This document shows, piece by piece, positions 3,194-62,604 of a DNA stretch of 64,000 bases. How positions within the stretch are numbered: the first letter of the stretch is position 1; each line of letters begins with the position of its first letter. The translations under genes were made by a program, and so were the position numbers. Source of the stretch: Myxococcota bacterium (GTDB lineage Bacteria; Myxococcota_A; Polyangia; HGW-17); contig JAHJMN010000021.1 in the NCBI GenBank assembly GCA_018821305.1, positions 17,451 through 81,450 of the forward strand, in the 5' to 3' direction. The notes under the pieces were generated by a model. That model saw nothing but the letters and a program-made list of their open reading frames with translations, made no database searches and was not told the origin of the DNA.

Positions 3194-3348
3194 TATATAG
3201 TTACTGTCCTGAAATACCGAAAATCAAATTTTTTGCCCAATTTTTGCTCAGGACAGTAACCGCAAGGTGTTGAAAATATTACTAGTGGCCTGTTAGAAAT
3301 TTTAATAAATTTCTTCGCGAAGCGAATTACAGGACACTAACTATATAG
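3194..3348 (+). mobile_element. Family-1 MITE-like intergenic element, copy A.
   Basis: The element is ~150 bp with terminal inverted repeats TAGTTACTGTCCTG … CAGGACACTAACTA. It carries an internal 13-bp stem GTTACTGTCCTGA/TCAGGACAGTAAC, the palindromes AGGATTTTTAATAAAATCCT and CTTCGCGAAG, and is flanked by TATATA on both sides. It is near-identical to copies at ~24979, 32325 (x2), 42968, 43716 and 53482. Confidence 0.8.
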
Positions 3349-9636: not shown

Positions 9637-11901
9637 ATGTCCGCAAAAAAAAAACTAGCTGACAGAATTTTTCGTTACGGAATCATAATTTTTATAGTCC
9701 CATTGATAGTGATCATAAGCTTGCTTTCAATAGTTTTTGTCAAGCTTCGAATGCTCCACAAGGACTATAATAACATAGTCCATATCCTTCATTCGGACAT
9801 TGACTCCATTGATAAAAGACTGCATAAATACACTGTCAATCTGAATGAAAATCAAAGAAAAATTCAGAGTGTAAATAAAGCCAGAGCACTGCAGACAGTA
9901 AATGAAAAACTTATTTTTTCAACAGCACAACTTGTTGGCTCATTTTTAGATACACAGATTTTAAAAATACCGGTAGACAGAAATCTTCTCGTTAATCTTT
10001 ATTTCGATTCAACGGCCCAGACACGCACGCTTGCAAAAAAGCAATTAACTCTCTCAGTTATGAAACCAGATCCTTCAAAGCCGGTACCTGCTACCAATCC
10101 CGGAAAAATACCCGATTTGAAACTTCCTGCCCGTTCGCCTTCTGACAACAAAGGCGTAAATGATACTGAAGACCTTAAGAAGCGAATCATGCTTCTCCGA
10201 ACCGGAAAAAATCTGGATAGCAAACAGATTAAGACTCTGATGAAGTCCTTTTTAAAAAATGCTAAAGTATTCAATCGAAATAGCGTTTACTTTTTAATTG
10301 ATCATGAAGATCTTCACAAACACAGAATAATCTGGGCATCTCAGCCTGCGTGGACCGATCGTCTTATGGCTGATTTTGAACCTCTTGAACCTCTTCGCGG
10401 GCTTTTAATAAGCACAAATTATATGCGAACAGTTCTGGATTTTCATGATTTTAAGAGTGAACCAGTTCTACTCAAGAATCTGATTTCCGCCGGAGCTACT
10501 GGTACTGAGGCTAAATACTCAATTTCAAAGGACATGTTCTACGGAATGGTACCAGTATTTGGCACCTCTCTCAGTCTGGGGATTCAAACGCCTATGAATG
10601 ACGAATTCGTTCGCACACTTGATAGCATAAGTGACAACATGGGCCTTTTGAGCACTTTCCTGAAATCTGCAAACCTTGATATTAGAAAAGCTGACAGCCA
10701 AACAAGACTGCTTCACCAGCGTTTTGACAGTGAAACTCGCAATTCGAATTCAATGTTCATCTATATTCTTATTTTTGCATTGATTTTCGTTGGTGTAGGC
10801 TTGTTTCTACTTATCCACTCCCTTCAAAAAAGAGTTGTCAAACCTATTATGGAGATGAGAAAAGTCTCATCCCTGATATCCGAAGGAGACTACGGAGCCC
10901 GCTGCAGTGTCGATACGGATGACGAACTTGAAGAGTTATCTGAGTCTATCAATATCATGCTCGACCGCATAGTTTCTTTAATTCAAAGCGAAGAAGACAA
11001 AGTGAATATGCAGGCGGATATAGTTCAACTACTGGATGTTGTTTCACAGGCCAGTGCCGGAGACCTTACAGTACGTGGTTCGGTTAATACTGCAGATTTT
11101 CAAGCAGTTATGGATGCTTTGAACCACATGATGTCGTCCATAGGTAATCTTGTTATAAGGGTTAGGGCAAGTGGAAATGGCGTTGAACACTACTCAAGGT
11201 TGATGCTGGATACGTCCAGGGCAATTCTTGATAAATCCAATAAGCAGACAACGGATCTTGATATTGCAACAAGGAAAATTAAGGCCCTGGGTGATCGAAG
11301 TCAAGAAATTACCCGAATGGTTGAGCAAATCGGCTCAATAGCTATTGAAACAAATACTCTGGCCCTTAATGCCACACTGGAAGCATCCAGAACCGGCGAC
11401 AGAGATACTGGGATATCACATTTGGCAGAGCATGTTAGACAACTTGCTGATGGCTTGAAAAAGACAAAGCAGGACATAGATTCATTTATGGGGTCCATAC
11501 AACTTGCAACAAATCATGCTGTTCATTCAATGGAAGAGGTACTTTCCTTAACAAGAGAGACAACGGGACAGGCAAAACTCTCTTTTGAAAATGCCGAAAG
11601 TACTCACAATGAAGCAAATCAACTGGCAAAAAGCATAAGCATATTTAAAATTAAAACTCAACTGGATCTTGAAAAGGAAAACGAACTTAAAACATCGGTA
11701 AAAAATATAATCACGAATATCAAGCAAGCTCGCAAACTAATTACGTCGATTGAAACTGATGAATTCCAGAGTTTCGGATATCTCTTTGAAAGCTTCGAGA
11801 AGGATATAAGAGAATTCGCCATGATGGTGGCCAAATCAGGTCTGGATTCAGAGCGTGGACCTTCCTCTGATGAAGAAGTTCCAGCCATTATTGAGGAATA
11901 G
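9637..11901 (+). CDS. Methyl-accepting chemotaxis protein-like transducer, PilJ-like, with two TM segments, a periplasmic domain, HAMP and an MCP signalling domain.
   Basis: TM helices lie near residues 15-37 and ~370-392. The MCP signalling core is present (IAIETNTLALNATLEASRTGDRDTGISHLAEHVRQLADG). An A10 homopolymer tract sits at codons 4-7. Confidence 0.75.
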   Translation: MSAKKKLADRIFRYGIIIFIVPLIVIISLLSIVFVKLRMLHKDYNNIVHILHSDIDSIDKRLHKYTVNLNENQRKIQSVNKARALQTVNEKLIFSTAQLVGSFLDTQILKIPVDRNLLVNLYFDSTAQTRTLAKKQLTLSVMKPDPSKPVPATNPGKIPDLKLPARSPSDNKGVNDTEDLKKRIMLLRTGKNLDSKQIKTLMKSFLKNAKVFNRNSVYFLIDHEDLHKHRIIWASQPAWTDRLMADFEPLEPLRGLLISTNYMRTVLDFHDFKSEPVLLKNLISAGATGTEAKYSISKDMFYGMVPVFGTSLSLGIQTPMNDEFVRTLDSISDNMGLLSTFLKSANLDIRKADSQTRLLHQRFDSETRNSNSMFIYILIFALIFVGVGLFLLIHSLQKRVVKPIMEMRKVSSLISEGDYGARCSVDTDDELEELSESINIMLDRIVSLIQSEEDKVNMQADIVQLLDVVSQASAGDLTVRGSVNTADFQAVMDALNHMMSSIGNLVIRVRASGNGVEHYSRLMLDTSRAILDKSNKQTTDLDIATRKIKALGDRSQEITRMVEQIGSIAIETNTLALNATLEASRTGDRDTGISHLAEHVRQLADGLKKTKQDIDSFMGSIQLATNHAVHSMEEVLSLTRETTGQAKLSFENAESTHNEANQLAKSISIFKIKTQLDLEKENELKTSVKNIITNIKQARKLITSIETDEFQSFGYLFESFEKDIREFAMMVAKSGLDSERGPSSDEEVPAIIEE

Positions 11902-11905
11902 CCTG

Positions 11906-14900
11906 ATGTCTGAAAAGGTTATTTCCGAACTGGCTCAATGGCTTAAAAGGGTTGAAGATCATCCATCTTCCCTTATCAGGAATATTACCTCTACATCTCC
12001 TATCCAGAAGTACATTTCTGAAATTGAAGAAACATGCTCTTTTCCTGAAAGATTAAGAGATGAGTCCATTCTTTCTGAAACCGGTGAAGATGATATAAGC
12101 AGTTTTTACGATGAAGACATGCTCAAATCACTGCTTGAAGTTTTCCAGGCTGAAGCATATGAACACATAGAATCTCTTGCAGAACAACTGGATGCATGGC
12201 CCCCAGGTATATTTGATATCTATCGGACATTCCACACGATTAAGGGCGCCGCAGCAACGGTAGGACTTACTAAAATAAGTCGTGCATCCAAATTGCTGGA
12301 AGATGTTTTTCATAGTTTTGCTGATACATCAACCGTTCCGGAAGATACAATATTCTTTCTTCTATGCGCTGCGTCATGCACACTTTCCCTTATGGTTACA
12401 GATGGCTCAGATCTTTTGCCTGAAGTTTCAGGAATCATCAAATTCGCATGCAGCGATCCCCAAACCCTTTCAGGTAAACCAGTTTCAACAGACGAAAAAA
12501 AAAACCGGGAAAAAAAACAAATTGAATTAAGTAGAAATATTAGCCAGCCTGAGTCACTGAATAGTCAAGAATTACCGCCTGATGAAGATACCTCAACATC
12601 CTTAAAAGAATGTGTGGAACTGGATGAGATGACGCTTATCCTTATGGAAGTGTTTTCTCAGGAAGCTGAGGAACATCTTTCGCGTTTTGACTCCCTCGTG
12701 GAAGAGCTACAAAATGGCAATGACGTATTTCACGAGCTTTTTCGAGTAACTCATACACTCAAAGGAGCTGCGGCTACCGTGGGAGTAAACCGTGTCAGTA
12801 CCGCGGCACACAAGTTAGAAGATTTCTTTGAAAAAATAAGCAAGTCTGGAGCTTCATTATCCAAAAATGATATAAATTTGATTTTTCACATGAGCGAACT
12901 TCTAAGGCGCTCCATTGAGCCATGTGATGAAGATGTACTTTCTGAACTTGATAGGACAATTGCCTTAATCGGTAAAAATAATGGGACACGGGGAGAAAAA
13001 GAGAACCTGAATCCGGATTCTACCGAAAGCCACGGTATTTCAACCGCTGTTTCCTCGGAAGATACCGGCAAAAGCAATCTGAATCCGTATTCTACCGAAA
13101 TTAATGAAACTGTTCCAGGACTCACAAAACCCCGTGGCCGTCAAACCACAACGGGAAAAGGAGAAGCAAGCTCCTCAATACTTCGCATCAGGGTTGATGA
13201 TATAGATAAATTAATCAATTCTTCTGAGGAGTTAGTTCATGTAAGGACTCAGATCGAAAAAAGCCGTGATGACTTCAACAGTATTACTGGAGACCTGTTA
13301 CTCAGCCATCACACCCTGAGACATTTTCTAATGGAAGACCGCAACCGAATGAATGAAGCGGAGAGATTGGAGCGGCTCTCAGAACTTGAAGTAGAAATTG
13401 CTGAACTTATCTACAATCTTGAGCATAGTTCGATCAATCTTACCAGGGAATGTGTAAGCCTTCAAAACCTTGCAAGAATTATTCAGGAGCGACTCATAAC
13501 CCTTCGCATTACAAACTTTGAGATACTTTTTATTAAGTTGAAGCAGTCTATTCGAGAAAACGCTTTCAGTACATTTAAAAACATCAACATTATATTGGAA
13601 GGGCAAAATGTAGAAGTAGATAAAGGAGTAGTTGATTCCCTGTCTTCGCCTCTCCTCCAGATAGCACGAAATGCTGTTGCCCATGGGATAGAAGGGCCTC
13701 AGGAGCGGCTTATAGAAGGAAAACCACCTGATGGCACCATCAGGATTTCCGCCGTTCAGGAGGGATACTTTGCCAAAATAACATTCGAGGATGACGGACG
13801 CGGAATTGATTTTGAACAGGTAAAATCTATTTTAGCAAAGAAGAAGTTCATTTCCACAGAGGGCGAACTTAAAAAACTTACTAAAAACGATCTTTATGAG
13901 GCAATCTTTCTGCAAGGATTTACCACCAAGGAAACCGCTGATTCTCTTTCAGGTCGTGGCGTTGGATTGGATCTGGTGAGAGAAAAAATAAGGAAACTTG
14001 GAGGTGATATTTCTGTAGAATCTATTACCGGAGCGGGTACAAAGTTTATCATCAGGGTCCCTCTTACAACATTCGTATCCAAAGCGCTCCTCTTTACAAT
14101 TGGTAATGAAGTATATGGAGTTCCATCAACTTATTGCATCGAGGTAATGGAGCATTCCTCCAGAAAACCTATAATGCCAGGAGCGAGACTTATCTGGAAA
14201 TCTGAATCTATTCCAGTAGTTCCACTTCATTATTATTTTGGGATTGATCGAGCTCCTATTGCTCGAACCCCCTACTCCATCATAGTATTGCAGCACGGGG
14301 AACATCATTTTGCAATCGCAGCTGATGCAACCATAGGCATTAAAGACGTTACTGTAAAGCCACTTGGAAAAATACTTGGGTCAATAAATTACTTCAACGG
14401 CGCAGTTATTTCTGGAGCGGGCACAATACAGATGATCCTTTCGGTTCCATTTCTGGCCTCACTTGCAAGACCTACAATTGGATTCCATAAGGGTAAAGAT
14501 ATTCAGAAGCACATAAGCGCTCCAAGAATTCTGGTTTGTGACGATTCAAAAAGCGTCAGGGAAGCAGCCGCCCGAATAATAGCTGGCGCAGGTTATGAAG
14601 TTACAAAAGTTCAGGATGGTTGGGAAGCGTGGAATATACTCCACAATGAATTATTCAATCTTGTTCTAACGGATCTTGAAATGCCAAGAATGACTGGTTG
14701 GGAACTGATTTCCGAAATTAAAAGGGATGTATTGCTCCAGAATATTCCAGTCGTAGTTTTATCGTCAAGAACCGGAGAAACATCCCGTGACCGAGCCATG
14801 GACGCGGGGGCTAATTATTTTGTAAGTAAACCCATTAAGCCACTTATTTTACTGAGAGTATTGGAGCAATTCATTCCATTGAACGAGTCAACCATGAGTA

Positions 14901-15496
14901 ATCGAATAGTTCTTTTTGCCACACAAAACCGCGGGAAGATCCTTGAACTTAGTTCTCTAATGCTGGATCTTAACCTTGAACTCTGGGGTATGGAACATTT
15001 CCCTGATCTTGAAGAAGTTGTTGAGGATGGAGCCTCTTTTGAGGAAAACGCTATAAAAAAGGCAAGGACTCGCTGTATCCAGACCGGACTACCTTGTATA
15101 GCTGATGACAGCGGTCTTGAAGTGAACGCTCTTGATGGAGCGCCTGGAATACTCAGTGCAAGATACGCTGGCGAAGAGGCAACCGATCAGGAGCGAATCA
15201 ACTTCCTCCTGAATAACATGAAGGATAAACGGGAGCGCACTGCGCAATTTGTAAGCGTTATTGCTTTTATAAAAAGCCCTTCTTCAGAACCAATCGTCGT
15301 AAAAGGTGTATGTAAAGGCTCCATTGGATACGAACCAATTGGAAGCCACGGTTTCGGATACGATCCTGTGTTTATTCTTCCTGATGGAAAAACAATGGCT
15401 GAACTCACTATGGAAGAAAAGAATGAAATCAGTCACAGAGCAAAGGCTTTCAAAAAATTACTTCCGTATCTTGAAGAGTTTTCAAATATCCAATAG
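11906..15496 (+). CDS. ChpA-like hybrid chemosensory kinase (2x Hpt, HATPase_c, CheW, REC) continuing in frame into an RdgB/Ham1 nucleoside-triphosphate pyrophosphatase domain. The likely start is the ATG at 11906; the listed ORF begins at 11855.
   Basis: Two Hpt motifs are present (HTIKGAAATVGL, HTLKGAAATVGV). The HATPase G-boxes are present (GRGVGLDLV…GGDISVESITGAGTKFIIRVPL). A CheW-like domain follows (LLFTIGNEVYGVPSTYCIEVME), then a REC domain (ILVCDDSKSVRE…LVLTDLEMPRMTGWEL…FVSKP). After that, MSNRIVLFATQNRGKILEL…FEENAIKKAR…IADDSGLEVNALDGAPGILSARYAG…GFGYDPVF matches RdgB/Ham1. A GAGGAA RBS lies before 11906. Confidence 0.8.
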   Translation: MSEKVISELAQWLKRVEDHPSSLIRNITSTSPIQKYISEIEETCSFPERLRDESILSETGEDDISSFYDEDMLKSLLEVFQAEAYEHIESLAEQLDAWPPGIFDIYRTFHTIKGAAATVGLTKISRASKLLEDVFHSFADTSTVPEDTIFFLLCAASCTLSLMVTDGSDLLPEVSGIIKFACSDPQTLSGKPVSTDEKKNREKKQIELSRNISQPESLNSQELPPDEDTSTSLKECVELDEMTLILMEVFSQEAEEHLSRFDSLVEELQNGNDVFHELFRVTHTLKGAAATVGVNRVSTAAHKLEDFFEKISKSGASLSKNDINLIFHMSELLRRSIEPCDEDVLSELDRTIALIGKNNGTRGEKENLNPDSTESHGISTAVSSEDTGKSNLNPYSTEINETVPGLTKPRGRQTTTGKGEASSSILRIRVDDIDKLINSSEELVHVRTQIEKSRDDFNSITGDLLLSHHTLRHFLMEDRNRMNEAERLERLSELEVEIAELIYNLEHSSINLTRECVSLQNLARIIQERLITLRITNFEILFIKLKQSIRENAFSTFKNINIILEGQNVEVDKGVVDSLSSPLLQIARNAVAHGIEGPQERLIEGKPPDGTIRISAVQEGYFAKITFEDDGRGIDFEQVKSILAKKKFISTEGELKKLTKNDLYEAIFLQGFTTKETADSLSGRGVGLDLVREKIRKLGGDISVESITGAGTKFIIRVPLTTFVSKALLFTIGNEVYGVPSTYCIEVMEHSSRKPIMPGARLIWKSESIPVVPLHYYFGIDRAPIARTPYSIIVLQHGEHHFAIAADATIGIKDVTVKPLGKILGSINYFNGAVISGAGTIQMILSVPFLASLARPTIGFHKGKDIQKHISAPRILVCDDSKSVREAAARIIAGAGYEVTKVQDGWEAWNILHNELFNLVLTDLEMPRMTGWELISEIKRDVLLQNIPVVVLSSRTGETSRDRAMDAGANYFVSKPIKPLILLRVLEQFIPLNESTMSNRIVLFATQNRGKILELSSLMLDLNLELWGMEHFPDLEEVVEDGASFEENAIKKARTRCIQTGLPCIADDSGLEVNALDGAPGILSARYAGEEATDQERINFLLNNMKDKRERTAQFVSVIAFIKSPSSEPIVVKGVCKGSIGYEPIGSHGFGYDPVFILPDGKTMAELTMEEKNEISHRAKAFKKLLPYLEEFSNIQ
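14894..15496 (+). CDS. rdgB: RdgB/Ham1-family dITP/XTP pyrophosphatase module (200 aa). It could alternatively initiate at the ATG at 14894.
   Basis: Conserved Ham1 motifs are present (ATQNRGK, ENAIKKA, ADDSGLEV, GAPGILSARYAG, GFGYDP). It is in frame with the upstream kinase, with no stop and only a weak RBS (GAG). Confidence 0.7.
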   Translation: MSNRIVLFATQNRGKILELSSLMLDLNLELWGMEHFPDLEEVVEDGASFEENAIKKARTRCIQTGLPCIADDSGLEVNALDGAPGILSARYAGEEATDQERINFLLNNMKDKRERTAQFVSVIAFIKSPSSEPIVVKGVCKGSIGYEPIGSHGFGYDPVFILPDGKTMAELTMEEKNEISHRAKAFKKLLPYLEEFSNIQ

Positions 15497-21032: not shown

Positions 21033-21421
21033 AATTCCTCACCAAACCACTGGAAGTCTAAGCCAGTGCTTCGATTACGTCAAGATTTTTGGAGTCACAA
21101 CTTCAGTAATTTCTATACAGCCAGTGTTTGGCGAAAATCGGAAGATGTTACTCCCATTTTTGACTCTGAATCTTGTATCAGATATTGATAAATATGAAAG
21201 CTGATTCTTTGGATTTACATAAATTTTCCGATTATCTTTTTACCAACTTAAAATTTAAAAAAATATGTTTTATTGCTCACAGTTTGTTTGTATACTATCA
21301 TTCGGCAATAAGATAGTGTCCTGATGACAAGACACGAACTAACTGTTTGATTATTAATATTCTCCTTCGTACTGACAAGTTTTTAAAGGAAGAATATTTT
21401 TTTTATCAATTGGAGTGCTGC

Positions 21422-24970: not shown

Positions 24971-24978
24971 ACTTTTGC

Positions 24979-25130
24979 TTAGTTACTGTCCTGAAATACC
25001 GGAAATCAAATTTTTAACCAATTTTTTGCTCAGGACAGTAACCGCAAGGTGTTGAAAATATTACTAGTGGCCTGTTAGGATTTTTAATAAAATCCTTCGC
25101 AAAGCGAATTACAGGACACGAACTACTTAG
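24979..25130 (+). mobile_element. Family-1 MITE-like element, copy B.
   Basis: AGTTACTGTCCTGAAATACCGGAAATCAAATTTTTAACC…GCTCAGGACAGTAACCGCAAGGTGTTGAAAATATTACTAGTGGCCTGTTAGGATTTTTAATAAAATCCTTCGCAAAGCGAATTACAGGACACGAACTA is near-identical to copy A. Confidence 0.8.
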
Positions 25131-25218: not shown

Positions 25219-25380
25219 TCTGACCCTATCCCTGTTTACCTGACTATCTTATTCCCAGTTAAAATATTTCAGGTAACCATGAAATCAGTAGAAGGAACAG
25301 GAAACCAGGGGCTCTTTCCCGAAATATTTCTTTAAATTAAGTTACTATCGCATAACTCCGCAAGCGGTATAGCCCGAAGA
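25219..25380 (-). repeat. Family-2 structured repeat, 5' portion in reverse orientation, ending in the CCGCAAGCGGT…ACCGCTTGCGG hairpin.
   Basis: The reverse complement aligns with the 5' ~170 bp of the units at 28646-28966 and 56943-57412 (…TTCAGGTAACC…CAGTAGAAGGAACAGGAAACCAGGGGCTC…). It has a terminal 11-bp palindromic stem. Confidence 0.7.
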
Positions 25381-28544: not shown

Positions 28545-28645
28545 GAGCGTAACCCTTTCTGACTGATGATTAATTTATTTCTTCGCATATGTCCACATTT
28601 TTCAGTAGACAAATTGACCAATTTCTTTTTTCAATTTTATCATTA

Positions 28646-28966
28646 GACCGCTTCAGAAGAAATACGATAGTTGCCTGTTTTCAAGAAATACAGGTTCAGT
28701 GGCTTTACCTGAACAGCATTGATACTAGACCGCTTTCGAGGTAATACGATTGTGACTCGGTTTAAAGAAATGCTTCAGGAATGAGCCCCGTTTTCCTGTT
28801 CCTGCTACTGATTACCTGAATACCTGATTTTTTTAACAGGTAATCAGGAAGTCAGGTAAACAGGTTCAGGAACAGGTCATAAACATTCGACATCAAATAA
28901 TAATTAAAAAGACCGTAATTTTTATTCAATTTCCCAATTTCGATCCTTTTATTCCGCAAGCGGTCT
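28646..28966 (+). repeat. Family-2 structured repeat, full unit, bounded by AGACCGCTT…AAGCGGTCT.
   Basis: Approximately 300 bp are shared with 56943-57412 (two tandem units). The reverse complement is shared with 25219-25380 and 41649-41750. The unit ends with CCGCAAGCGGTCT. Confidence 0.75.
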
Positions 28967-30689
28967 AGATTGGAGAGAAATAACCAGCTCGGATTTTTGA
29001 AATAATATATTTAAATGTCTTTGCGGTTTCCTTGTCAAGTTCGGGCTCTACCAGTTTACCACCATTTTCCCACGCATCAGATGTACCAAAAAAGTATGCT
29101 GCGTAGTTCTCAGGAATATTAAAGTCAGGTCTTTTAAGCTCGTCCATGCAAGGGGCAGAGGGCTTCCGCGAAGGATCCTTAATATACTCCAGGAAAATGC
29201 TTAAACCGCACCCGGGACGCCCCCGCGTTTCAACCTCGCTTGACCATAAAACACCATGATTTGCCCATGGAATAAGGAAACTGAAATGATTCTCTCCCTG
29301 AAGTTTCGAAACTGAAATAGAGCTTACGTTTTCAGGTGTTTGAAGGTCATGAGTACCGTTAAGCAAAAGAAAATTTCGGTTAGTCTCTGCAAATTTTCCA
29401 TACCATTCGTCTTTTTCATATACTGGCCACGGTGAAGCCCTCTGTGATAATCGATAATCCAGTTTGACTCCTGTTAGAAGATCTTCATATCGCTCTGAAA
29501 CGTAATCCACAGAATAGGCCGGTGAGTGAATCATCTCGCTGACAGCAATATTCAGAAAAAGAATATAGTTAAGTTGAATGACATCCAGCGGAAGATTATC
29601 AATGTGGAGTGGATTATTTTTTTTCTGTCCGAAAACCGTTGCGATGAGGTTATTTATTGCCGTTATGTCTTCGGATGAACATCGGGCAAGTCTGTACCAC
29701 AATGCTACTGAAAGGCTACTGATGGATTTCTGGATGGCAAGACTGAAAGTCAGATAACGGATGGTATCAGCATCAAAAGAGTTGCAGTGACCGCTTTTCA
29801 GGTTATCCAGCGTATCCCTGACATGCGAAACGGCATCACCACCCATTTTTTGCGAACACATCTGGTTCTCATTGCACTCCTTGAGGAGATTTACAAATCC
29901 AGTTTCCGAGTTCACATCATAGTCATCAAGAAAACATGCACCCACAAGGCACATGGAATCAAGGGTAACACTACTGGCTTGATTTGGAAATATCTGTGCA
30001 TATCGGTGGGCCCAGGAACTTCCGTAACTGACACCGTAAACATGATTCCTAATGCCATCTTTTCTAATTAATTCAATAAAATAACCTAAATCTTTTGAAG
30101 CGTTAGTTATATTGAATTTCTCCAACCACTCTTTATTTTCTATTAGTTCACCCTGAATACATTCTGTTATCTCATCCTCACTTATTGCCCGCCCATAAGG
30201 GCCTTCTGTCGAAACGGCTGATGGGCACGTAAGAAAAGTACTATAACCCGTACCTCTATGGTCAAATGCAATAAATTCAGCTTCGGGATCAAGTAAAGCC
30301 ATTTCCGGCATATAATATGGAAAATCAATCGTTGACGAGCCCCCAGGCCCTCCCTGTAGCATTACGACTGTTCGCTTTACTTCCCTTAATGCAATTGTCT
30401 TTTTCACTCGGATTGAAATTAGTTGATTCTCTGGATCATTCCAGTCAAGGGGAACTGAAAAATCAGCGCACAATGCATTGTTTTCCGGGCCGCCCTCTGT
30501 AAGAGGACATGGATACCATTCTATTTCCTGGGAAATCTGCTCATTTGAAAACATTTCTACATAGCTAATTTCAGATTTGTCATTGTTATTGTTAGTATTA
30601 TTACTATTATTGACTGTGTTATTTTTCTCATTTTCACATGAAAAGAAAATTATACCGAGTAAGACTATATAAATAAAATACTTCTTCAT
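28965..30689 (-). CDS. Alpha/beta-hydrolase (S33/TAP-like peptidase family) lipoprotein with an Asn/Thr-rich linker.
   Basis: The lipoprotein signal is MKKYFIYIVLLGIIFFSC. The oxyanion/nucleophile motifs GGPGGSS and GVSYGSSWA (GxSxG) are present. The linker is NNTVNNSNNTNNNND. Confidence 0.65.
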   Translation of the reverse strand: MKKYFIYIVLLGIIFFSCENEKNNTVNNSNNTNNNNDKSEISYVEMFSNEQISQEIEWYPCPLTEGGPENNALCADFSVPLDWNDPENQLISIRVKKTIALREVKRTVVMLQGGPGGSSTIDFPYYMPEMALLDPEAEFIAFDHRGTGYSTFLTCPSAVSTEGPYGRAISEDEITECIQGELIENKEWLEKFNITNASKDLGYFIELIRKDGIRNHVYGVSYGSSWAHRYAQIFPNQASSVTLDSMCLVGACFLDDYDVNSETGFVNLLKECNENQMCSQKMGGDAVSHVRDTLDNLKSGHCNSFDADTIRYLTFSLAIQKSISSLSVALWYRLARCSSEDITAINNLIATVFGQKKNNPLHIDNLPLDVIQLNYILFLNIAVSEMIHSPAYSVDYVSERYEDLLTGVKLDYRLSQRASPWPVYEKDEWYGKFAETNRNFLLLNGTHDLQTPENVSSISVSKLQGENHFSFLIPWANHGVLWSSEVETRGRPGCGLSIFLEYIKDPSRKPSAPCMDELKRPDFNIPENYAAYFFGTSDAWENGGKLVEPELDKETAKTFKYIISKIRAGYFSPI

Positions 30690-32119: not shown

Positions 32120-32324
32120 ATTTCCTCCTTCTTCCAATCCTGGAAGCATTTTGTTACCTCCGGAAAGTATCTTTGTTTCCGGATAGATAGTTAGCAGACG
32201 GATCACCGCCATATGAGGAGATATATTTAAATTCTTCAATAGAATCGTCCTGATACGAAATTCAGGACGTATCAAAACAGGTTTCCGGACGATGCAGCCC
32301 CCATATTCAATTCTTTTATTTTAA

Positions 32325-32650
32325 TTAGTTACTGTCCTGAAATACCCAAAATCAAAGTTTTCACTTGATTTTAGGTCAGGACAGTAACCGCAAGGTGTTG
32401 AATTTATTGTAGTGGCCTGTTAGGATTTTTAATAAAATCCTTCGCGAAGCGAATTACAGGACACGAACTAATTAGTTACTGTCCTGAAATACCGAAAATC
32501 AAATTTTTCGCCCGATTTTTGCTCAGGACAGTAACCGCAAGGTGTTGAATTTATTATAGTGGCCTGTTAGGATTTTTAATAAAATCCTTCGCGAAGCGAA
32601 TTTCAGGACACGAACTAATTAGCTCGTGTCCAGTATTCAGGACATTAACA
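32325..32650 (+). mobile_element. Two tandem Family-1 MITE-like copies (C at ~32325-32474, D at ~32473-32622) plus a 28-bp terminal fragment.
   Basis: There are two consecutive ~148-bp units, each with the full set of hairpins. The tail CTCGTGTCCAGTATTCAGGACATTAAC repeats the terminal motif. TAATTA flanks both sides. Confidence 0.8.
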
Positions 32651-35020
32651 ATATTTATCTCTCCACTCAGATGGAGTCATACCAGTATGTTTTTTAAACT
32701 GTGCGTTAAAAGATGATTTAGATGTAAATCCAGATTCCATTGCGATCTCGAGTATATTCACATCCCCTTCTCTCATTTTCTTTTTAACGAGTTCAACACG
32801 AAGGAAACTAATGTAATTGGAAAAACTCATGTGTTTCTCGACATTAACAAACTGACTCAGATCACTTTGTTTTATGTGAATCAGGCGGGCAAGTTTTCTG
32901 ACTGTCAAATCAGCATCGGTGAGTATTTCGAGTTTTGAAAGCACAGAATTTAATGATTTTTCAATTTCATTAAGTTGATCACGGTTTAACCTGCGGTCTC
33001 CATATTTTTCCTCCATTGCAGGTTTAGAATCTTCAACTCCAGCATTCACTGAATCAATTTCTGACTCTTGCTTTTTCGAATTTGTACATTCATTTATTGC
33101 AACTGAATCGCCACTCGGGTTATTACTATTTTTATTTGGACTATTGAAGGTGACTTCAGTTGATCCCATTTTCTTAATTTCAGTTCGACTGAAGTGCATT
33201 ACAATAATTGAGAGAAGCGTTAAAAAAATAATTACTACTACAATGCGGAAATAAATAGATTCGAAAACCTTCTGCTTTCGAATTATACTTATCTCAACTG
33301 AATTATCTGAAATCCTTTTCTTATAATAATCGAGGGAAATTTCAAGCCGGAACTGTCCAGGACCAAAACCTGTCAACGATAAGTTGTTTCCTGAACGCCT
33401 GATATTTTTATGATGTTTCCTTAATCGTATCTGATAATCTGTTCCCCAGGGAGCAAATGGTGACACAAATTCAATATCAAGTCTGTCGTCAGGGGAGTCC
33501 AACTTAACCGATTTTGAAATCTTTCTTTCCACCCCATTCACTGCAATTGAAATAATGCTGACAGGGTTGAATGCTTTCCTTAAATCAGAGTTGAGATCAA
33601 TCCGCACAATTCCAGCAACAGTTGAAAAAAGAACATTGTTATTATAAATGAGGGCTGTATTTAACCCAACACCCGTACACTCGGCAGACTCCATACCATC
33701 TGATTCATTAAAACTGGATATAACCGATATCTGTTGATTTTTCCCCTTCAAAAAATTCAGAATGTCTCTTTCAGCATATCGAAAAATGCCTCTATTTCCT
33801 GACGACCAGATGTACCCCTTATGATCTTTTATCCATGAAAACACGCTGTTGTCAGCAAGGCCGTTTTTACTTGAAATATGAATTGTTTTCCCCTTGTTCA
33901 GAAAGAAAATCCCATTTTTTGTTCCTACCGAAACATACTTTTCATATTCACTGATAAACTCAATATACAGATCAGTAACTTCGGCAAAGGGCGTAGCACG
34001 TCCGGTTTCTAATGAAATCTCATATAGTCCCCTGCCCCAGGTACCTGCATATAACTTTTTTCCAACCTGCAGCATGCTTGTGATAATAGTATCCTTGTGC
34101 GGTAACAACGAAATTTGTATTGCCTGAGAATTATTTACTTTAAAAACATTACCCCTTGTACTTACATACAGATTGTCTCTCAATCCATATATAGAATTAA
34201 TTGCTTGTCCTCTAAAAGAAATAACTTTCACAAAGGAGCCGGCACTCAATTTATAAAGGGTATCTCCACAACTTCCGAATATTTCATCATTTACTGATGC
34301 CACTATTGGTTCAAGAGATTTATCTGATTTACATTCAAGATTGACAGGAACACAAGGAGCCTCCAGAGTAGATTTAACACAAATACCCACTCTGGGTCGA
34401 GCTGCCCATAGATATCCCTTTTTATCAATAGCAATTGTCCTTATAGTGAGTTTTGAATCAGAAACATTTATCTTTCCGCGATATATTCGGTGCAGACCGT
34501 CTCCTATCGTAGAAATCCAGTAGTTTCCGTTTATATCTTTGTGGCTACAACTGATTTTTTTAACATTTGCATACACCGGGACATCATTGCGACAATGCCC
34601 TTGATATTCTTTCTTTTTTAAATCGAAATCAACACAGGAAAAAACTTCAATTGTAAAATCCCGGATTCGATAGCAGGAATCGCCGGCATTAAAATATACA
34701 ACTCTATCTTTATCCGAGATCAAATTTTTTACTAAATTGGATTTCAGAATTGGATTCCTGCTACGGTCATAAATTCTAAAAAATCGCCCATCAAATCGAG
34801 CGAGGCCTTCAAATGTACCGATCCATAAAAAACCAGCGCCATCAACAGCAACACCAGTGAGGCTATCCATGGGAAGCCCATCGCTCATTCGCCAATGCTC
34901 ATGAACCCACCCATTCTTTGATTCTCTCTGAAACCCACGAGCATCAGAAATCCAGGAAAACATTGTTATAATAATAAAAATAAATACCATATACTTCAGT
35001 TTTAATTTTTTATGCTCCAA
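32645..35020 (-). CDS. Membrane-anchored one-component regulator with a periplasmic beta-propeller/Y_Y_Y sensor, one TM helix and a C-terminal AraC-type HTH.
   Basis: The N-terminal signal/TM is followed by the two-component-regulator-propeller signature (…LWIGTFEGLARFDG…). A TM helix follows (IVVVIIFLTLLSIIVMHF). The C-terminus is an AraC HTH (…ILEIAMESGFTSKSSFNAQFKKHTGMTPSEWR). Confidence 0.75.
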   Translation of the reverse strand: MEHKKLKLKYMVFIFIIITMFSWISDARGFQRESKNGWVHEHWRMSDGLPMDSLTGVAVDGAGFLWIGTFEGLARFDGRFFRIYDRSRNPILKSNLVKNLISDKDRVVYFNAGDSCYRIRDFTIEVFSCVDFDLKKKEYQGHCRNDVPVYANVKKISCSHKDINGNYWISTIGDGLHRIYRGKINVSDSKLTIRTIAIDKKGYLWAARPRVGICVKSTLEAPCVPVNLECKSDKSLEPIVASVNDEIFGSCGDTLYKLSAGSFVKVISFRGQAINSIYGLRDNLYVSTRGNVFKVNNSQAIQISLLPHKDTIITSMLQVGKKLYAGTWGRGLYEISLETGRATPFAEVTDLYIEFISEYEKYVSVGTKNGIFFLNKGKTIHISSKNGLADNSVFSWIKDHKGYIWSSGNRGIFRYAERDILNFLKGKNQQISVISSFNESDGMESAECTGVGLNTALIYNNNVLFSTVAGIVRIDLNSDLRKAFNPVSIISIAVNGVERKISKSVKLDSPDDRLDIEFVSPFAPWGTDYQIRLRKHHKNIRRSGNNLSLTGFGPGQFRLEISLDYYKKRISDNSVEISIIRKQKVFESIYFRIVVVIIFLTLLSIIVMHFSRTEIKKMGSTEVTFNSPNKNSNNPSGDSVAINECTNSKKQESEIDSVNAGVEDSKPAMEEKYGDRRLNRDQLNEIEKSLNSVLSKLEILTDADLTVRKLARLIHIKQSDLSQFVNVEKHMSFSNYISFLRVELVKKKMREGDVNILEIAMESGFTSKSSFNAQFKKHTGMTPSEWRDKYC

Positions 35021-38584: not shown

Positions 38585-38630
38585 TCATTGCCCTGAAATA
38601 CCCAATTTACTCAGGACTTATGATAATCCA

Positions 38631-41607: not shown

Positions 41608-41648
41608 AATTTTGGTTCTGATAAAATTATTTCTAACAATTTCAAAGA

Positions 41649-41750
41649 ATTTCAGGTAACCAGAAAATCAGTAGCAGGAACAGGAAAACAGGGGCTCTTT
41701 CCTGAAGAATTTCTTTTAAACGAACAACAATCGTATTGCGGGATCTAATC
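41649..41750 (-). repeat. Family-2 repeat, partial unit in reverse orientation.
   Basis: TTTCAGGTAACCAGAAAATCAGTAGCAGGAACAGGAAAACAGGGGCTCTTTCCTGAAG…CAATCGTATTGCGG is the reverse complement of the unit core. It lies between the convergent sfsA and kbl genes. Confidence 0.7.
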
Positions 41751-42944: not shown

Positions 42945-42967
42945 AATGAGTCTCCTGCTTTCTATGG

Positions 42968-43137
42968 TTAGTTCAGGACAGTAACTGTTTAGTTCGTGTC
43001 CGGAAATTCGATTCGCGAAGAATTTTGTTAAAAATTCTATCCGGCCACTACCAGTGAATTCAAGACATTGCGGTTACTGTCCTGAGTAAAAAATCGACAA
43101 AAAATTTAAAAACCGTATTTCAGGAAAGTAACTGGTT
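42968..43137 (-). mobile_element. Family-1 MITE-like element, copy E, in reverse orientation and diverged.
   Basis: The reverse complement reads …CAGTTACTTTCCTGAAATACGG…ACTCAGGACAGTAACCGCAATG…TTCGCGAATCGAATTTCCGGACACGAACTAAACAGTTACTGTCCTGAAC. Confidence 0.7.
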
Positions 43138-43209
43138 AAGAACACTGGCAATCTGATCGTAGATTTATAACAAGAAAATACCCTCGAGAGCAACTTAAAA
43201 TGTGATGTT

Positions 43210-43695: not shown

Positions 43696-43715
43696 TCTTA
43701 TCTCCCGGGAACTAA

Positions 43716-43862
43716 TCAGTCACTGTCCTGAAAATAAAGAAATCATATTTTTTAGCCGATTTTTGGCTCAGGACAGTGACCACAAGGTGTTCCATTTATT
43801 GTAGTGGCCTGTTAGGATTTTTAATAAAATCCTTCGTAAAGCGAATTACAGGGTACGTACTT
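43716..43862 (+). mobile_element. Family-1 MITE-like element, copy F.
   Basis: The stem is GTCACTGTCCTGA…TCAGGACAGTGAC, with a compensatory A>C / T>G change that preserves pairing. CCTGTTAGGATTTTTAATAAAATCCTTCGTAAAGCGAATTACAGG follows. Confidence 0.8.
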
Positions 43863-43967
43863 ATAATATTAAAAATCGGTTTCTTTGATACAACAATCTC
43901 TCTCAGGAGATGATCTCAAAACCAATTGACCCCGAAAGATACCTGATTTTTTACTTTTCAGGAATTA

Positions 43968-46139: not shown

Positions 46140-49100
46140 TCAGGCCATAAAATCCAGTAGGTTATTCTTTGCACTCTTCGTGCCAGTAGCTTTCCTGTTT
46201 GACTCCGCCTCTGTATTTTTACTGTTATTACTATCAGTTATGTCAATTTCATAAGTTTCATCATCACTGGTTGATGTCCGGTGATGTCTCTCAGAAGAAC
46301 TACCAAACTCAAAAGATAACAGGTTATGTCCTTGATTTTTTAACATCTTTTCAATATTAAGAGCATCGTTTTTAATCTGTTCGATTAAATTGGTATCCTT
46401 ACCGTCAATGTATATACGGATCCCATCATTTTCCTCGCGAACTCTGATTTCGGTCCCTTTATAGGTAACACGAATTTCTTTGCCATCTTCAGCACTTACA
46501 GCCTTTTCCATTATTTTTTCAATAACTTTTTCCGGTGCATCAGTCTTCTCAGGCGCCAAGGGAGGCTGGGCTTCTTTTATTTCCGGTGCAAATTTGAATT
46601 CCACCTTCTCATTATTAACTACAGTGACGATATCTTTATCTATTTTTGACTTCCCTTTTTGATAAGTAGTTGTATTTTCTGGTTTTATAGTGTTATTTTC
46701 AACATTATTGAGTCTCTCAGGGTTATCAAGAACATCAATATCTGTCAAACCGGACGAAAAAGACTCATAAGAAGGTGTCAAAATTTCCTTTTCTGAAACC
46801 GGGATTTTGACGTTTTTTGTTTGCAATTCAGGATTTCTAACAGGTGCAGATCTATCATCATAAGATCCAAAGGTTTTCCCTGTCGATTTTTCACCTTGAG
46901 TACTTGAAAATTTCGCTTCAATCTCTATTTCCTTTTCCATATCAAGAGTTTCTACTCGCTCAATCGTAGTATTATCTGCTGTCTTGAAATCATTATTCTT
47001 TTTGTTTTCAGTTTCCGCCATTATGGTAGTTTTTGTTTCGGTTTTCTGGTTGGCATCCGGTGTATTTCTATTATCCACCGCAACTTCGCTGCCTTTAATT
47101 GCTCTTGTATTTGCTTTGATATCAGTTTCAATCGGCGTCCTGACACCGTCATCAAAATCCTGGATTAACATTTCATCTATATAATCGTTACGTTTTCCAC
47201 TTGTTTCAAAAGACAGGTTTTCTATATGTTCATCTGAACCTGCCATCGTGGGATTGCTTACTGCTGTTTTCAGTCCGAAAAAGTCTTTTTGTACAGTAGC
47301 GGGCAATTCCTCAGAAGCAGCAACAGCATAATTTTGGGCTTCAGACATGGGATTACTTTTTTGAGTTACATCTGGAATGGAATCTAAACGCACCTGAGTT
47401 TCTGCTTTTTCCTTTTCCGTGGAAACATCAGTATCCTGGAAATTAACTACAGAATCATCGTTAACCTCTGGATTATAAAGCGAACTGGATTTCCCTTCTT
47501 TCGGCACTTCAGGTGATTCCTGGACTCTTGCGTATTCGGATCCTTGACTCGATTCAACTTTTCCAATTATTTCGTCTTCCACTGCCACTGCTGCATCTTC
47601 GTTTACAACATTTGTTTGTACTGCCGCTGTATTTGACTTATCAACTTCGTTGACAACTTCATTGTCCACTGCTGCTGGATTAAACTCTTCTACTTCACTG
47701 ACAACTTCATTGTCCACTGCTGCTGGATTAAACTCTTCTACTTCGTTGAGAACTTCATCGTCCACTGCTGCTGGATTAAACTCTTCAACTTCACTGACAA
47801 CTTCATCGTCCACTGCTGCTGAATTAAACTCTTCAACTTCACTGGCAACGTCAAATTCCAGAGGATATTCTTTACTTTCTATTTTTGAGTTAACCAGAAT
47901 CTCATCGAAAACTGTTTCTGTCATATCAGTAACATATGTATTTTCTTCGGGCTTTTGTTCTGAAACTGACTTATCCCTGACTACTTTTGCAGAAATTATC
48001 TCATCTGGCCCACTGACAACTTCCGATCCCTCAGAATATTCCATCCCTTTAATCCCTGATCCATCGAATTTTACTTGAAGCTCATCAAGACTTGCTTCCG
48101 TATCCTTAATAAATGATTTTTCTACGGGATTTGATTTTTGACTTAACTCATCTCCCACAACCTCCAGCCCACTTGATGATTGATTTAACTCATCGCCTTC
48201 ACCGACAACTTCAACTTTTGGTTCCACCTTTGCCGGAACTGACTCTTCTGGACCATGGCTAACTCCCGTTTCATCGGGAAAATCTGTTTCATTGAATCCA
48301 ATTTCGTCAAAATTTGATTGAAGTTCATCAAGACTTGCTTTCGTTTCCTTAACAAATGATTTTTCTACGGGATTTGATTTTTGACTTAACTCATCTACCA
48401 CAACCTCCAGCCCACTTGATGATTGATTTAACTCATCGCCTTCACCGACAACTTCAACTTTTGGTTCCACCTTTGCCGGAACTGACTCATCAGCCCCACT
48501 GATTATTTCCATTTCTTCTGGATAGTCCACACTCTTCATTACTTTTGCGTGAGAGTCTAAATCCCTGAGGAATTCTTTTCCTGAATCAACAGAGGATACG
48601 CTGACTTCTATCTCATTATTATTGAGATATTCCCTGTCGTGTGTTTCATTCATTTGATATTTTACAGGTTCTACAAAATCTGCATCGATCTCTCCATCCT
48701 CATTCTTACTGTCTGTAGTCTTTCCAACTTCCTCCTGAGAAACCATATAATTTTCAAACATGGGATCATCTTCTAAAAGCAGACTATTAAATTCACCTGT
48801 TTCCGTTGCGAATACTATTCGGCGCTTTTCTATTTTTCCAGTGTTATCATTTAAAGATTCAGTCAGAATACTATCCACTTCATCTTCTATTTCAATAAAC
48901 TGTCCTGTCTTATACTGTTTAGAAACGGATCCTGTTGATGTATTTATTTTATTCAGGAAATCTTTTTGTTCTTTATTTCTATTTGTTTTTTCATTTCCAC
49001 TGTTAATACTTGAAATTTCTTTTGTTTCATTCAGTTCTTCTTTTTCAGTTCCAGGCTCTAAAGCAATATCACTTCCTGCGATACTTCCGGACTTTTCCTT

Positions 49101-49949
49101 ACGCCCATCGTTTGATGGTAGAACAGTTAAAAATACTGGAAATTCCCCTGAATTACTTAATGGCAGGTCAACTTGATTATATTTTTCACTCGATTTTTTA
49201 TCTTTCAGCAAATCGTTTTTAACATCAACGAAATATACATCTGATTCATCTTCTCCATAGCTTTCAGAAATACTGAAACTTACCCCCTGCTCATCAACCA
49301 TTACCTTATCCGGCTTCTTACCTACATTAACAAAATTATCAAGTTGTGGAAATGCTTTTGATTGTACTTCACCCCGGAACATCGGCTTTTCCCCGGAAGA
49401 TTTTGGGAAAACACTTTCAGGGAATATTTTCTTAATCTTTTCTTTTCTCTTATCATTTTCAGTGTATTTTTTAATATCGTCCTCACTCAGGGTCAAGGCA
49501 GCACTTTTCTTTTCAACGCTTTGTTTGAAACTTGTGGATTCATCTCCTCCAAATCTAATGTGCCGTAAATCCGTCACCGCCCGGTCAAGGTTTTCTTCCT
49601 CCATTATATAATTCAGGAGAAGGAATTTTTCACCTGTTGTACTTTTTGTCCCTTTTTTACTATCATCTGTAGTCTCTGGACTATCAATCAGTTCTTTTTT
49701 CACATCACCGACTAATTTTGTTTTCGGAGGGGTTTCTTCCATCGGTTTGGTTTTCGGAGGGGTTATATCAACCGATTCTTTTTTTTCGAAAAATACTTCC
49801 ACATCATTCAGAATAGTACTGAAGTTGTCCTTCTGAAACATACTCAAACTGTATTTCTTCGGTTTCGGAGGCATTTCTTTATTGTTTTGAATCCCGTTAG
49901 TTTTCATGGCTTTACCGCTCTGAATTATAGGGTTTAAAAGGGGAAGCAT
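46140..49949 (-). CDS. fliK: Flagellar hook-length control protein FliK-like, unusually large (1269 aa), acidic, with internal tandem repeats. An alternative start lies at 49907.
   Basis: The C-terminal ~100 aa resemble the FliK C-terminal (Flg_hook) domain (…EIRVTYKGTEIRVREENDGIRIYIDGKDTNLIEQIKNDALNIEKMLKNQGHNLLSFEF…). The gene lies between flbB-like and flgD. Two ~80-aa tandem repeats and 5x EVEEFNPAAVDDEVV repeats are present. Confidence 0.65.
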   Translation of the reverse strand: MLPLLNPIIQSGKAMKTNGIQNNKEMPPKPKKYSLSMFQKDNFSTILNDVEVFFEKKESVDITPPKTKPMEETPPKTKLVGDVKKELIDSPETTDDSKKGTKSTTGEKFLLLNYIMEEENLDRAVTDLRHIRFGGDESTSFKQSVEKKSAALTLSEDDIKKYTENDKRKEKIKKIFPESVFPKSSGEKPMFRGEVQSKAFPQLDNFVNVGKKPDKVMVDEQGVSFSISESYGEDESDVYFVDVKNDLLKDKKSSEKYNQVDLPLSNSGEFPVFLTVLPSNDGRKEKSGSIAGSDIALEPGTEKEELNETKEISSINSGNEKTNRNKEQKDFLNKINTSTGSVSKQYKTGQFIEIEDEVDSILTESLNDNTGKIEKRRIVFATETGEFNSLLLEDDPMFENYMVSQEEVGKTTDSKNEDGEIDADFVEPVKYQMNETHDREYLNNNEIEVSVSSVDSGKEFLRDLDSHAKVMKSVDYPEEMEIISGADESVPAKVEPKVEVVGEGDELNQSSSGLEVVVDELSQKSNPVEKSFVKETKASLDELQSNFDEIGFNETDFPDETGVSHGPEESVPAKVEPKVEVVGEGDELNQSSSGLEVVGDELSQKSNPVEKSFIKDTEASLDELQVKFDGSGIKGMEYSEGSEVVSGPDEIISAKVVRDKSVSEQKPEENTYVTDMTETVFDEILVNSKIESKEYPLEFDVASEVEEFNSAAVDDEVVSEVEEFNPAAVDDEVLNEVEEFNPAAVDNEVVSEVEEFNPAAVDNEVVNEVDKSNTAAVQTNVVNEDAAVAVEDEIIGKVESSQGSEYARVQESPEVPKEGKSSSLYNPEVNDDSVVNFQDTDVSTEKEKAETQVRLDSIPDVTQKSNPMSEAQNYAVAASEELPATVQKDFFGLKTAVSNPTMAGSDEHIENLSFETSGKRNDYIDEMLIQDFDDGVRTPIETDIKANTRAIKGSEVAVDNRNTPDANQKTETKTTIMAETENKKNNDFKTADNTTIERVETLDMEKEIEIEAKFSSTQGEKSTGKTFGSYDDRSAPVRNPELQTKNVKIPVSEKEILTPSYESFSSGLTDIDVLDNPERLNNVENNTIKPENTTTYQKGKSKIDKDIVTVVNNEKVEFKFAPEIKEAQPPLAPEKTDAPEKVIEKIMEKAVSAEDGKEIRVTYKGTEIRVREENDGIRIYIDGKDTNLIEQIKNDALNIEKMLKNQGHNLLSFEFGSSSERHHRTSTSDDETYEIDITDSNNSKNTEAESNRKATGTKSAKNNLLDFMA

Positions 49950-53481: not shown

Positions 53482-53672
53482 TCCATTCGTGTCTTTATTT
53501 TCAGGACATTAACTAGTCCGTGTCCTGAAAATCAATTTTTATCAAAATTGAGCATGTTTAGGAAAACATGCTATTCAGAACACTATAATAATTTCAAAGT
53601 CTTCATTCTTAATATCCTGGGTAAAAATTTGGTGCAAAATTTAAAAGATCGCATTACAGGACATTAACTATA
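53482..53672 (+). mobile_element. Family-1 MITE-like element, copy G (diverged), located between fliG and fliH.
   Basis: …TTCAGGACATTAACTAGTCCGTGTCCTGAAAATCAATTTTT…GCATTACAGGACATTAACTATA shares the terminal motifs with the other copies. The internal region has diverged. Confidence 0.6.
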
Positions 53673-56737: not shown

Positions 56738-56942
56738 CAAACCCACCCGGGTATTCCGAAATTCCTTGCCTTTCCGATTTCCAGTGTTTGAAAATCCTGT
56801 CATTTATAGAACTACGAAAAGTTTTTTAAAGCGTCGAGGGAAAAGAATGAAGCGACAAAAACATTCTGTGGGGCAGCGGAATAACAAAATGGGGATGTGA
56901 ATTATTTTTGTCATACCGAAAATTTGCAGCGGCGCCCGCGTT

Positions 56943-57412
56943 ATACCGCTTTCGAGGTAATACGATAGTAACTTAATTTAAAGAAAAGCTTCAGGAGAAA
57001 GACCCTGATTTTGCCTTGCATTCCGCTGCGCGAAATTGCTTGCCTGTTTCTGCTACTGAATTCCTGAATACCTGAAATTTTAAACAGAGACTCAGGTAGT
57101 CAGGCAAACAGGTTCAGGAACAGGGCGTAAATATTCAATATCAAATAATAATTAAAAGGAACATAATTTTTAATTCAATTTCCCAATTTCGTTCCTTTTA
57201 CTCCGCAAGCGGTCTAATACGATTGTTACTTAATTCAAAGAAAGCCTTCAGGAGAACGACCCTGATTTTGCCTTGCATTCCGCTGCGCGAAATTGCTTGC
57301 CTGTTACTGCTACTGATTTCCTGTTGCCTGATTTTTTTACAGGTAATCAGAAAGTCAGGAAATCAGGTTCAGGAACAGGGCGTAAATATTCAATATCAAA
57401 TAATAATTAAGT
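56943..57412 (+). repeat. Family-2 structured repeat as two tandem units (~56943-57215 and 57216-57412).
   Basis: Unit 1 ends CCGCAAGCGGTCT and abuts AATACGATTG of unit 2. It is >85% identical to 28646-28966. Confidence 0.75.
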
Positions 57413-62532: not shown

Positions 62533-62604
62533 CTAAAAATATACAAAGTATAACTTCTTTTGCGAAGCAAATATGCAGAGCCTGCTCCCCTGTTTCCAGT
62601 TGGA

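Follow-up and report, generated by a model that had tools for sequence, protein, structure and literature searches.

The window, i.e. the whole stretch of 64,000 nucleotides analysed here, is a piece of housekeeping chromosome according to Pfam scans of its 47 ORFs, and its genes include rnpA, yidD/yidC, a che cluster, fliG-H-I-J, flgD-E and those encoding a SpoU methyltransferase and an aminotransferase. It carries a family of short repeats whose cores are all located in the 11% of the window lying outside long ORFs. The Pfam scans of the 47 ORFs detected no transposase, RAYT, integrase or reverse transcriptase, and no Y1_Tnp domain, TnpA or TnpB, confirming an earlier statement that no transposase is encoded in the window. 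The names given by NCBI to proteins of the window read 'Myxococcota bacterium'.

Some genes of the window show features of their own. The long ORF at 96-2417 (-) reads as a YidD+YidC fusion of 773 aa and the 1213-aa ORF at 11855-15496 (+) associates CheA (Hpt-HATPase-CheW-REC) with a Ham1 ITPase domain; both may be real fusions or mechanical artefacts of ORF extension. Proteins with eukaryote-like EGF and LDL-receptor class A domains are encoded at 55784-56737 (+) and 60488-60997 (+), the LDL-A ORF having a 96-nt internal repeat (60820-60968). A 1269-aa ORF without Pfam match (46140-49949, -) occupies the usual position of FliK, between the flgD and fliJ/MgtE_N genes. It includes tandem repeats that stay in frame (four of 48 nt and two of 243 nt; 47597-47860 and 47983-48468), and its ortholog on contig L007 of a relative is 1213 aa long, the repeat part not being alignable. 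A second, unrelated repeat family consists of long CAGG-rich inverted segments with a CTCCGCAAGCGGTCTA motif (25261-25353, 28644-28967, 41644-41736 and 56941-57410 in the window, 1-60 in contig L003), with two tandem units of ~257 nt at 56941-57410; the Logan contig L002 breaks in this repeat at 56974. Furthermore, contig L008 is 100% identical to the window over 62460-64000 and diverges from it exactly at a tRNA gene (62460; L008 7420 onward). Past the tRNA, L008 leads to Peripla_BP_2 and giant VIT/VWA genes and the window to MFS, LDL-A and EGF genes. An island linked to the tRNA, a difference between strains or a mis-join in the assembly could each account for this divergence.

The first-pass annotation had reported a recurring unit of about 150 bp. 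This unit is real, since a covariance model derived from six aligned copies, i.e. from one subfamily, and run with filters off over the whole window gave exactly seven full-length matches, named A to G. In this search, six copies scored 160-185 bits and copy G reached 67.6 bits (E = 4e-13). Five of the copies had been placed in one group by a repeat finder, and the 13-mer GTTACTGTCCTGA, with at most two mismatches, occurs 20 times in the window versus 1.2 expected from dinucleotide shuffles. Copies A to F are 141-142 bp long and share 75-94% pairwise identity, whereas G, the representative of a divergent subfamily, is 153 bp long and shares 63-69% identity with any of them. In total, the window includes seven full copies, three mini copies made of the TIRs only and two decayed remnants.

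Direct reading of positions 32200-32800 reveals two head-to-tail units, C (32328-32468, +) and D (32475-32615, +), both with TAATTA on each side. Copy A (3200-3341, +) has a 142-bp core flanked by TATATA at 3194-3199 and 3342-3347. The core of copy B (24982-25123, +; 142 bp) starts 11 nt past the stop of a CNNM/CorC gene (ORF end 24970) and lies between TGCTTA (24976-24981) and TACTTA (25124-25129), which match at 5 of 6 positions. The flanks of copy E (42992-43132, -) are TAACCA and TAAACA, those of copy F (43719-43860, +; 142-bp core) are TAATCA (43713-43718) and TTATAA (43861-43866), and those of copy G (53516-53668, -), located between fliG and fliH, are TGTATA and TAGTTA.

The three mini copies all lie beside full ones: GTTAATGTCCTGA-ATA-CTGGACACGAGC (32622-32649, -) adjoins the C+D array, the 15-nt GTTACTGTCCTGAAC (42971-42985, -) lies beside copy E and GTTAATGTCCTGAAAATAAAGACACGAAT (53485-53513, -) is found 2 nt off the right end of G. 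The two fragments previously indicated near 21318 and 38585 are real remnants. The first is an isolated 28-nt mini copy or remnant with the two terminal repeats only, GATAGTGTCCTGA-TGA-CAAGACACGAAC (21312-21339, +), and the second is what is left of a first hairpin after decay and an internal deletion (38585-38625, +).

It had been stated that all copies are intergenic. This holds, although stop codons are touched or supplied by three copies. The TAG codon of fliG (53670-53668) is completed by the first base of copy G, the TAA codon of an AraC-like regulator gene (32647-32645) is supplied by the mini copy 32622-32649, and the stop codon of a relative's aminotransferase gene (2031-2033 of contig L003) is supplied by the first bases of an element. 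In all three cases, it is the element start (GTTAA.. / ..TA|G) that gives the stop of the upstream gene. Some copies are located inside operons (fliG-fliH and SpoU-aminotransferase), and the orientation of the copies relative to flanking transcription is mixed (about four sense and three antisense). No ORF of 20 aa or more was found inside copies C and D.

In an alignment including the flanks, the copies are similar from GTTAC... at the left up to ...GAAC at the right. Each is bounded by imperfect TIRs of 12 nt, GTTACTGTCCTG on the left and CAGGACACGAAC on the right; in all seven copies, GTTACTGTCCTG matches the reverse complement GTTCGTGTCCTG at 10 of 12 positions, or 13 of 16 if extended. 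The inverted repeats described by the first-pass annotation are thus present, but the outer TA and A that it had included in them are target sequence, because the 6 bases outside each core form direct repeats, AT-rich and TAWTTA-like. The flanks formerly noted around copy A (TATATA) and around the tandem pair (TAATTA) are found as such 6-bp duplications. From A to G, a copy's own flanks match at 6, 5, 6, 6, 5, 4 and 3 of 6 positions; cross-paired flanks match at a mean of 3.8 of 6, all flanks being TAWTTA-like, and the observed total was reached by none of 265 derangements. The family thus duplicates 6-bp AT-rich TAWTTA-like target sites. A duplication of TA, as produced by IS630-type elements, was ruled out: GTTAC is preceded by CA in E and F, and 6 additional bases are needed to account for the empty sites described below. 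With a duplication of 6 bp, the TA-duplicating IS630/Tc1 group is excluded and several DDE families would fit, among them IS481-like, IS1634 and some ISNCY groups.

Such 6-mers also separate neighbouring members of the family. The array at 32322-32621 (+) reads TAATTA-C-TAATTA-D-TAATTA and is followed by a mini copy, and the block at 42965-43138 (-) consists of TAACCA, copy E, TAAACA, the 15-nt mini copy and TAACCA. In the same way, L008 carries a family copy, then TAATCA, then a mini copy. Of the eight full copies, five have another member close by, at a distance of exactly 6 nt in four cases and of 2 nt in one, and the array spacer is the same 6-mer as the outer flank. Repeated insertion into the 6-mer duplicated by an earlier insertion would be the simplest account of the arrays; we infer from their identical 6-nt spacers that new insertions often hit the 6-mer duplicated beside a resident copy. 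Copy-out-paste-in IS families (IS30, IS21, IS3/IS911, IS256) form tandem dimers or circle junctions, and a junction of this type could be an alternative origin, repeated insertion explaining the arrays equally well. As in IS dimers, a right end abuts a left end over a spacer of duplication length (TAATTA between C and D); unlike in IS dimers, no transposase is found here and the spacer also equals the outer flanks.

The first-pass annotation had proposed that strains be compared for presence/absence polymorphism. Contigs of relatives were obtained through homologue searches, and the genes of one of them, SRR32001354 (contigs L003, L007 and L009), are 82-89% identical to the window at the nucleotide level; for another, SRR32167788 (contig L004), identity is 75-81%. 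The array C+D, copies E and F and the full copy G are all absent from SRR32001354, and private copies are present in the relatives. At the site of E, the SpoU-aminotransferase spacer measures 265 nt in the window versus 97 nt in L003 and 101 nt in L004. The window reads gtgttct-TAACCA-[E, TAAACA, mini]-TAACCA-tagaaagcagg, whereas L003 (gtgttct-TTACTA-cagaaagcagg) and L004 (ggttct-CAACCG-cagaagacagg) have a single 6-mer, the whole E block being absent. Likewise, L003 lacks F and reads aata-TTATTT-tta-cccgggag where the window has aata-TTATAA-[F]-TGATTA-gtt-cccgggag. At both sites, the length differences fit the insert plus 6 bp. The other two sites are not clean empty sites, the relative having a degenerate mini copy there. 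The array C+D is missing in L009 (spacer of 57 nt versus 369 nt in the window), which retains a degenerate counterpart of the mini copy 32622-32649; the full G is missing in L007 (fliG-fliH spacer of 57 nt versus 206 nt in the window), which retains a degenerate counterpart of the mini copy 53485-53513.

Conversely, some sites without a copy in the window are occupied in the relatives. L007 terminates in a main-type copy directly after the flgE stop, L003 terminates in a G-type copy that provides the stop codon of the aminotransferase gene, and L004 has a G-type copy upstream of SpoU. An additional copy is located 5.8 kb beyond the end of the window (L008). Contig breaks occur at copies in three independent assemblies; for example, a contig of GCA_018820545.1, which encodes a protein identical to the SpoU methyltransferase of the window, begins inside copy F, the corresponding gene of the window being located between E and F. 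Because of these empty and filled sites, of the copies private to relatives and of those beyond the window, the family is considered to be dispersed, multi-copy and recently and independently active in at least three related lineages. In a relative showing 70% identity (L005 and L006, 30 kb in total), no copy was matched by the model, which was built from one subfamily; the distribution of the family may be limited to one narrow clade. Exact-pattern scans for conserved parts of the unit returned nothing from metagenome and viral collections and, for genome contigs, nothing among the matches listed, this last absence being weak evidence. Blastn of C-D against plasmid and phage collections gave no match either.

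RNAalifold applied to six copies predicts four helices, H1 to H4. In H1, a 13-bp stem joins the left TIR to its internal inverted copy, and the 35-nt loop contains a further imperfect stem. H2 pairs an internal GTGgCCTGT with ACAGGaCAC of the right TIR and encloses H3 and H4, which in the main subfamily are AGGATTTT-TAAT-AAAATCCT and TTCGC-GAA-GCGAA, copy A (3200-3341, +) having the H3 variant AGAAATTT/AAATTTCT. An unpaired linker of ~25 nt separates H1 from the three-way junction of H2 with H3 and H4. The element would thus form a long hairpin and a three-way junction because each terminal repeat pairs with its own internal complement. Folded singly as DNA, the copies give an identical two-domain architecture (z-scores of -3.1 to -8.2), and G adopts the two-domain fold whether folded as DNA or as RNA. 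Its H3 (GCATGTTT-TCCT-AAACATGC) and H4 (TCAATTTT-GATA-AAAATTGA) are unrelated in sequence to those of the main subfamily and have the same positions, stem lengths and loop sizes. Several structural details of the first-pass annotation are found in the sequence, namely the 13-bp stem, the palindrome AGGATTTTTAATAAAATCCT and the paired change GTCAC/GTGAC of copy F. The supposed palindrome CTTCGCGAAG is better described as the hairpin TTCGC-GAA-GCGAA, since the variants of B and F keep the hairpin and break the palindrome. The linker sequence TTGAAwTTATTATAGTG (32547-32563 and 53578-53594 (-)) is common to both subfamilies, and TAGTGG, sometimes GTAGTGG, precedes the second domain. This linker resembles a -35 box and is followed 17-18 nt on by TAGGAT or TAGCAT; it fails the promoter scan.

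In the seven-copy alignment, which holds seven sequences only and was fitted to the model, 97.8% of the cells are paired and 11 of the 33 pairs show two-sided compensatory changes. None of the covariation measures was reached in any of 500 shuffles, and sliding the partners by 1-3 columns leaves only 0-1 pairs changed on both sides. The predicted fold is therefore kept by compensatory changes, which strengthens the former proposal of selection on structure, as 11 pairs and not a single one are involved. It should be noted that quasi-palindromes can gain paired changes by template switching, without selection. Covariation is seen between the left TIR and its internal partner in F (T>C with A>G) and G (C>A with G>T), and between the right TIR and its own partner in E and G (in E, CCTGT/ACAGG > CCGGA/TCCGG). 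There is none between the two TIRs, which argues for hairpins at the ends rather than for mere co-adaptation to a transposase. In the four cases where a change on one side only preserves the pair, the result is always G.U on the plus strand of the element, a weak hint of selection on one strand. The copy of L004 carries two uncompensated changes in H3; individual copies thus decay, the structure seeming to be maintained in propagating lineages.

Short size, TIRs, target duplication, lack of coding capacity and filled/empty site polymorphism lead us to consider the family, with a probability of about 80%, as a non-autonomous DNA transposon (MITE) mobilised in trans. This was also the suggestion of the first-pass annotation, and it is upheld by the TIRs, by the 6-bp duplications, by the empty sites of C+D, E and F and by the private insertions of relatives. 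The inverted repeats and the target duplication are the sole grounds on which we infer that a DDE enzyme mobilises it in trans. Such a transposase, whose gene would lie in another part of the genome, would act at the repeats of the element, which would be cut or copied there and then pasted at a staggered 6-bp cut, new insertions often landing on a 6-mer already duplicated beside a resident copy. The fold would be maintained because it is needed by propagating lineages or by the copies tolerated inside operons, and its effect could be at the level of the transcript (mRNA stability or processing) or at a single-stranded or cruciform DNA stage; old individual copies would decay. A classical double-strand DDE mechanism needs no separate hairpin for each end, and the conserved fold is thus left unexplained by the transposition model.

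There is a slim chance that the fold is required for transposition itself, each end having to be displayed in a separate hairpin by an intermediate that is single-stranded or cruciform. H1 would present the left end and H2, together with H3 and H4, the right end, and the enzyme would still make the staggered 6-bp cut. If true, this would be a hairpin-dependent mode with target duplication, fitting neither the classical DDE nor the HUH families, and it might explain why new copies are found exactly beside resident ends.

The family could also be a dispersed structured ncRNA, whose transcripts would act as mRNA stabiliser, processing site or sRNA, mobility being the means of dispersal. We regard this as rather unlikely on its own, although it and the MITE interpretation are not mutually exclusive. 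The compensatory changes in a third of the pairs are in its favour, as are the four one-sided changes, all G.U on the plus strand and therefore A.C mismatches on the opposite one, the stem lengths and loops kept by G in spite of unrelated H3 and H4 sequences, and the linker conserved across subfamilies. The copies located in the fliG-fliH and SpoU-aminotransferase operons must be transcribed, and the analogous bcr1 element is transcribed (PMC3184786). However, orientation is mixed, no tested copy is conserved at its site in the relative with 82-89% nucleotide identity, which implies that no single copy is under long-term host selection, and the L004 copy has accumulated its uncompensated H3 changes. 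Neither a sigma-70-like promoter passing the scan nor an intrinsic terminator was found in C-D. The first-pass annotation had put forward a terminator function, which is not supported, as no G+C-rich stem with a T-run was found in C-D: H1 is followed by CGCAAGG, and only a weak 5-bp stem was matched on the reverse strand. No known RNA family was recognised either, since in Rfam 15 only a tRNA reached its threshold over the window in gathering mode and the best E-value-mode match of C-D obtained 24 bits versus a threshold of 100.

An origin as REP/REPIN-type sequences, also evoked earlier, appears very improbable. A RAYT (HUH Y1) would recognise and spread single-stranded hairpins made of pairs of the 13-nt motif, and the units would be BIME-like mosaics. 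Indeed, three motifs are found per unit and both orientations are represented, the 15-29-nt TIR-only mini copies resemble REP hairpins, the grouping of units in arrays recalls that of BIMEs, each end has a covarying hairpin of its own, and TAGTGG or GTAGTGG is found ahead of the second domain. Nevertheless, REP/REPIN and HUH Y1 transposition leave no target duplication, whereas the 6-bp duplications are confirmed here by empty sites. The 13-nt motif itself is not palindromic, and no Y1_Tnp/RAYT domain occurs in the 47 ORFs of the window.

In the same way, it is extremely doubtful that the family derives from an IS200/IS605-type element (PATE) moved as single-stranded DNA by a TnpA Y1 enzyme through subterminal hairpins. 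Although each end lies in its own hairpin (H1 or H2), the two covarying independently, and TTAC is found at the left boundary, PATEs are defined by the absence of TIR and of duplication and by insertion 3' of a fixed tetra- or pentanucleotide. Here, the TIRs and the 6-bp duplication are clear, the left flank is variable instead of being a fixed tetranucleotide, the window encodes neither TnpA nor TnpB and Rfam gave no omega-RNA-like match. IS608 inserts 3' of TTAC; an IS608-like insertion was ruled out, as the flanks do not fit. Integron attC sites, which follow the order RYYYAAC ... GTTRRRY in a uniformly oriented cassette array next to intI, were rejected as well: the motifs follow the order GTTAC...GTAAC, the units lie in both orientations among housekeeping genes and the window ORFs include no integrase. 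Lastly, an assembly artefact or a local segmental duplication would agree with the source being a metagenome-assembled genome and with public scans having given no other copy (for the genome collection, among the matches listed), but its probability is practically negligible, since the copies diverge from one another by 6-37% and their flanks are unrelated, the independent assemblies L001 and L002 also contain E and portions of F and G, and relatives carry copies at other sites.

The MITE family described here is previously undescribed, the kind of element being well known. It fragments the assemblies of this lineage, three public assemblies breaking at copies, and offers a ready marker for strain typing, as every tested site differs between relatives. 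The copies located in flagellar and housekeeping operons donate stop codons and may affect expression. The family would rank among the clearer bacterial MITE cases of selection on a two-domain fold rather than on sequence, a whole subfamily having swapped the sequences of two hairpins and kept their geometry. It could thus be a tractable system for studying why MITEs keep structure, through effects at the mRNA level or through a transposition intermediate.

Among known repeats, REP/BIME and REPIN-RAYT sequences share with this family short hairpin-forming motifs in both orientations, mosaic clusters and an extragenic location. They differ from it by the target duplications, the non-palindromic motif and the 142-bp units with defined ends found here, and by the lack of a RAYT in the window. 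The MITEs Correia/NEMIS (Neisseria), ERIC, RUP and Nezha duplicate TA and fold as one long TIR-TIR hairpin, whereas here 6 bp are duplicated and the pairing partner of each TIR is an internal complement, not the other TIR. They are nevertheless alike in having TIRs, target duplication and a stable predicted fold, in their size of 100-160 bp and in their intergenic location, sometimes inside operons. As here, empty and filled sites are found between relatives (PMC3184786).

In kind, the family appears to most resemble bcr1 of Bacillus, the Correia elements of Neisseria also being alike in kind, and nothing in it is at variance with current knowledge of bcr1 or Correia-type elements. The bcr1 repeat was reportedly described in Okstad 2004 and Klevan 2007. 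The host belongs here to a different phylum and there is no sequence similarity to bcr1, nothing having been found at threshold in the Rfam, plasmid and phage searches. Other differences are the duplication (6 bp at TAWTTA-like sites here, 5 bp for bcr1), the second domain, which is here a three-way junction, the head-to-tail arrays sharing a spacer and the TIR-only mini copies. In the Bacillus cereus group, bcr1 is a transcribed element of ~155 bp with 5-bp direct repeats, whose positions differ between strains and whose two independent stem-loops are kept by compensatory changes (Delihas 2011, PMC3184786). Like bcr1, the family described here is made of intergenic units of ~150 bp without ORF, flanked by short direct repeats, found at positions that are not conserved between close relatives and having no assigned partner transposase. 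In both, a two-domain fold would be kept by compensatory changes, some copies losing stability over time.
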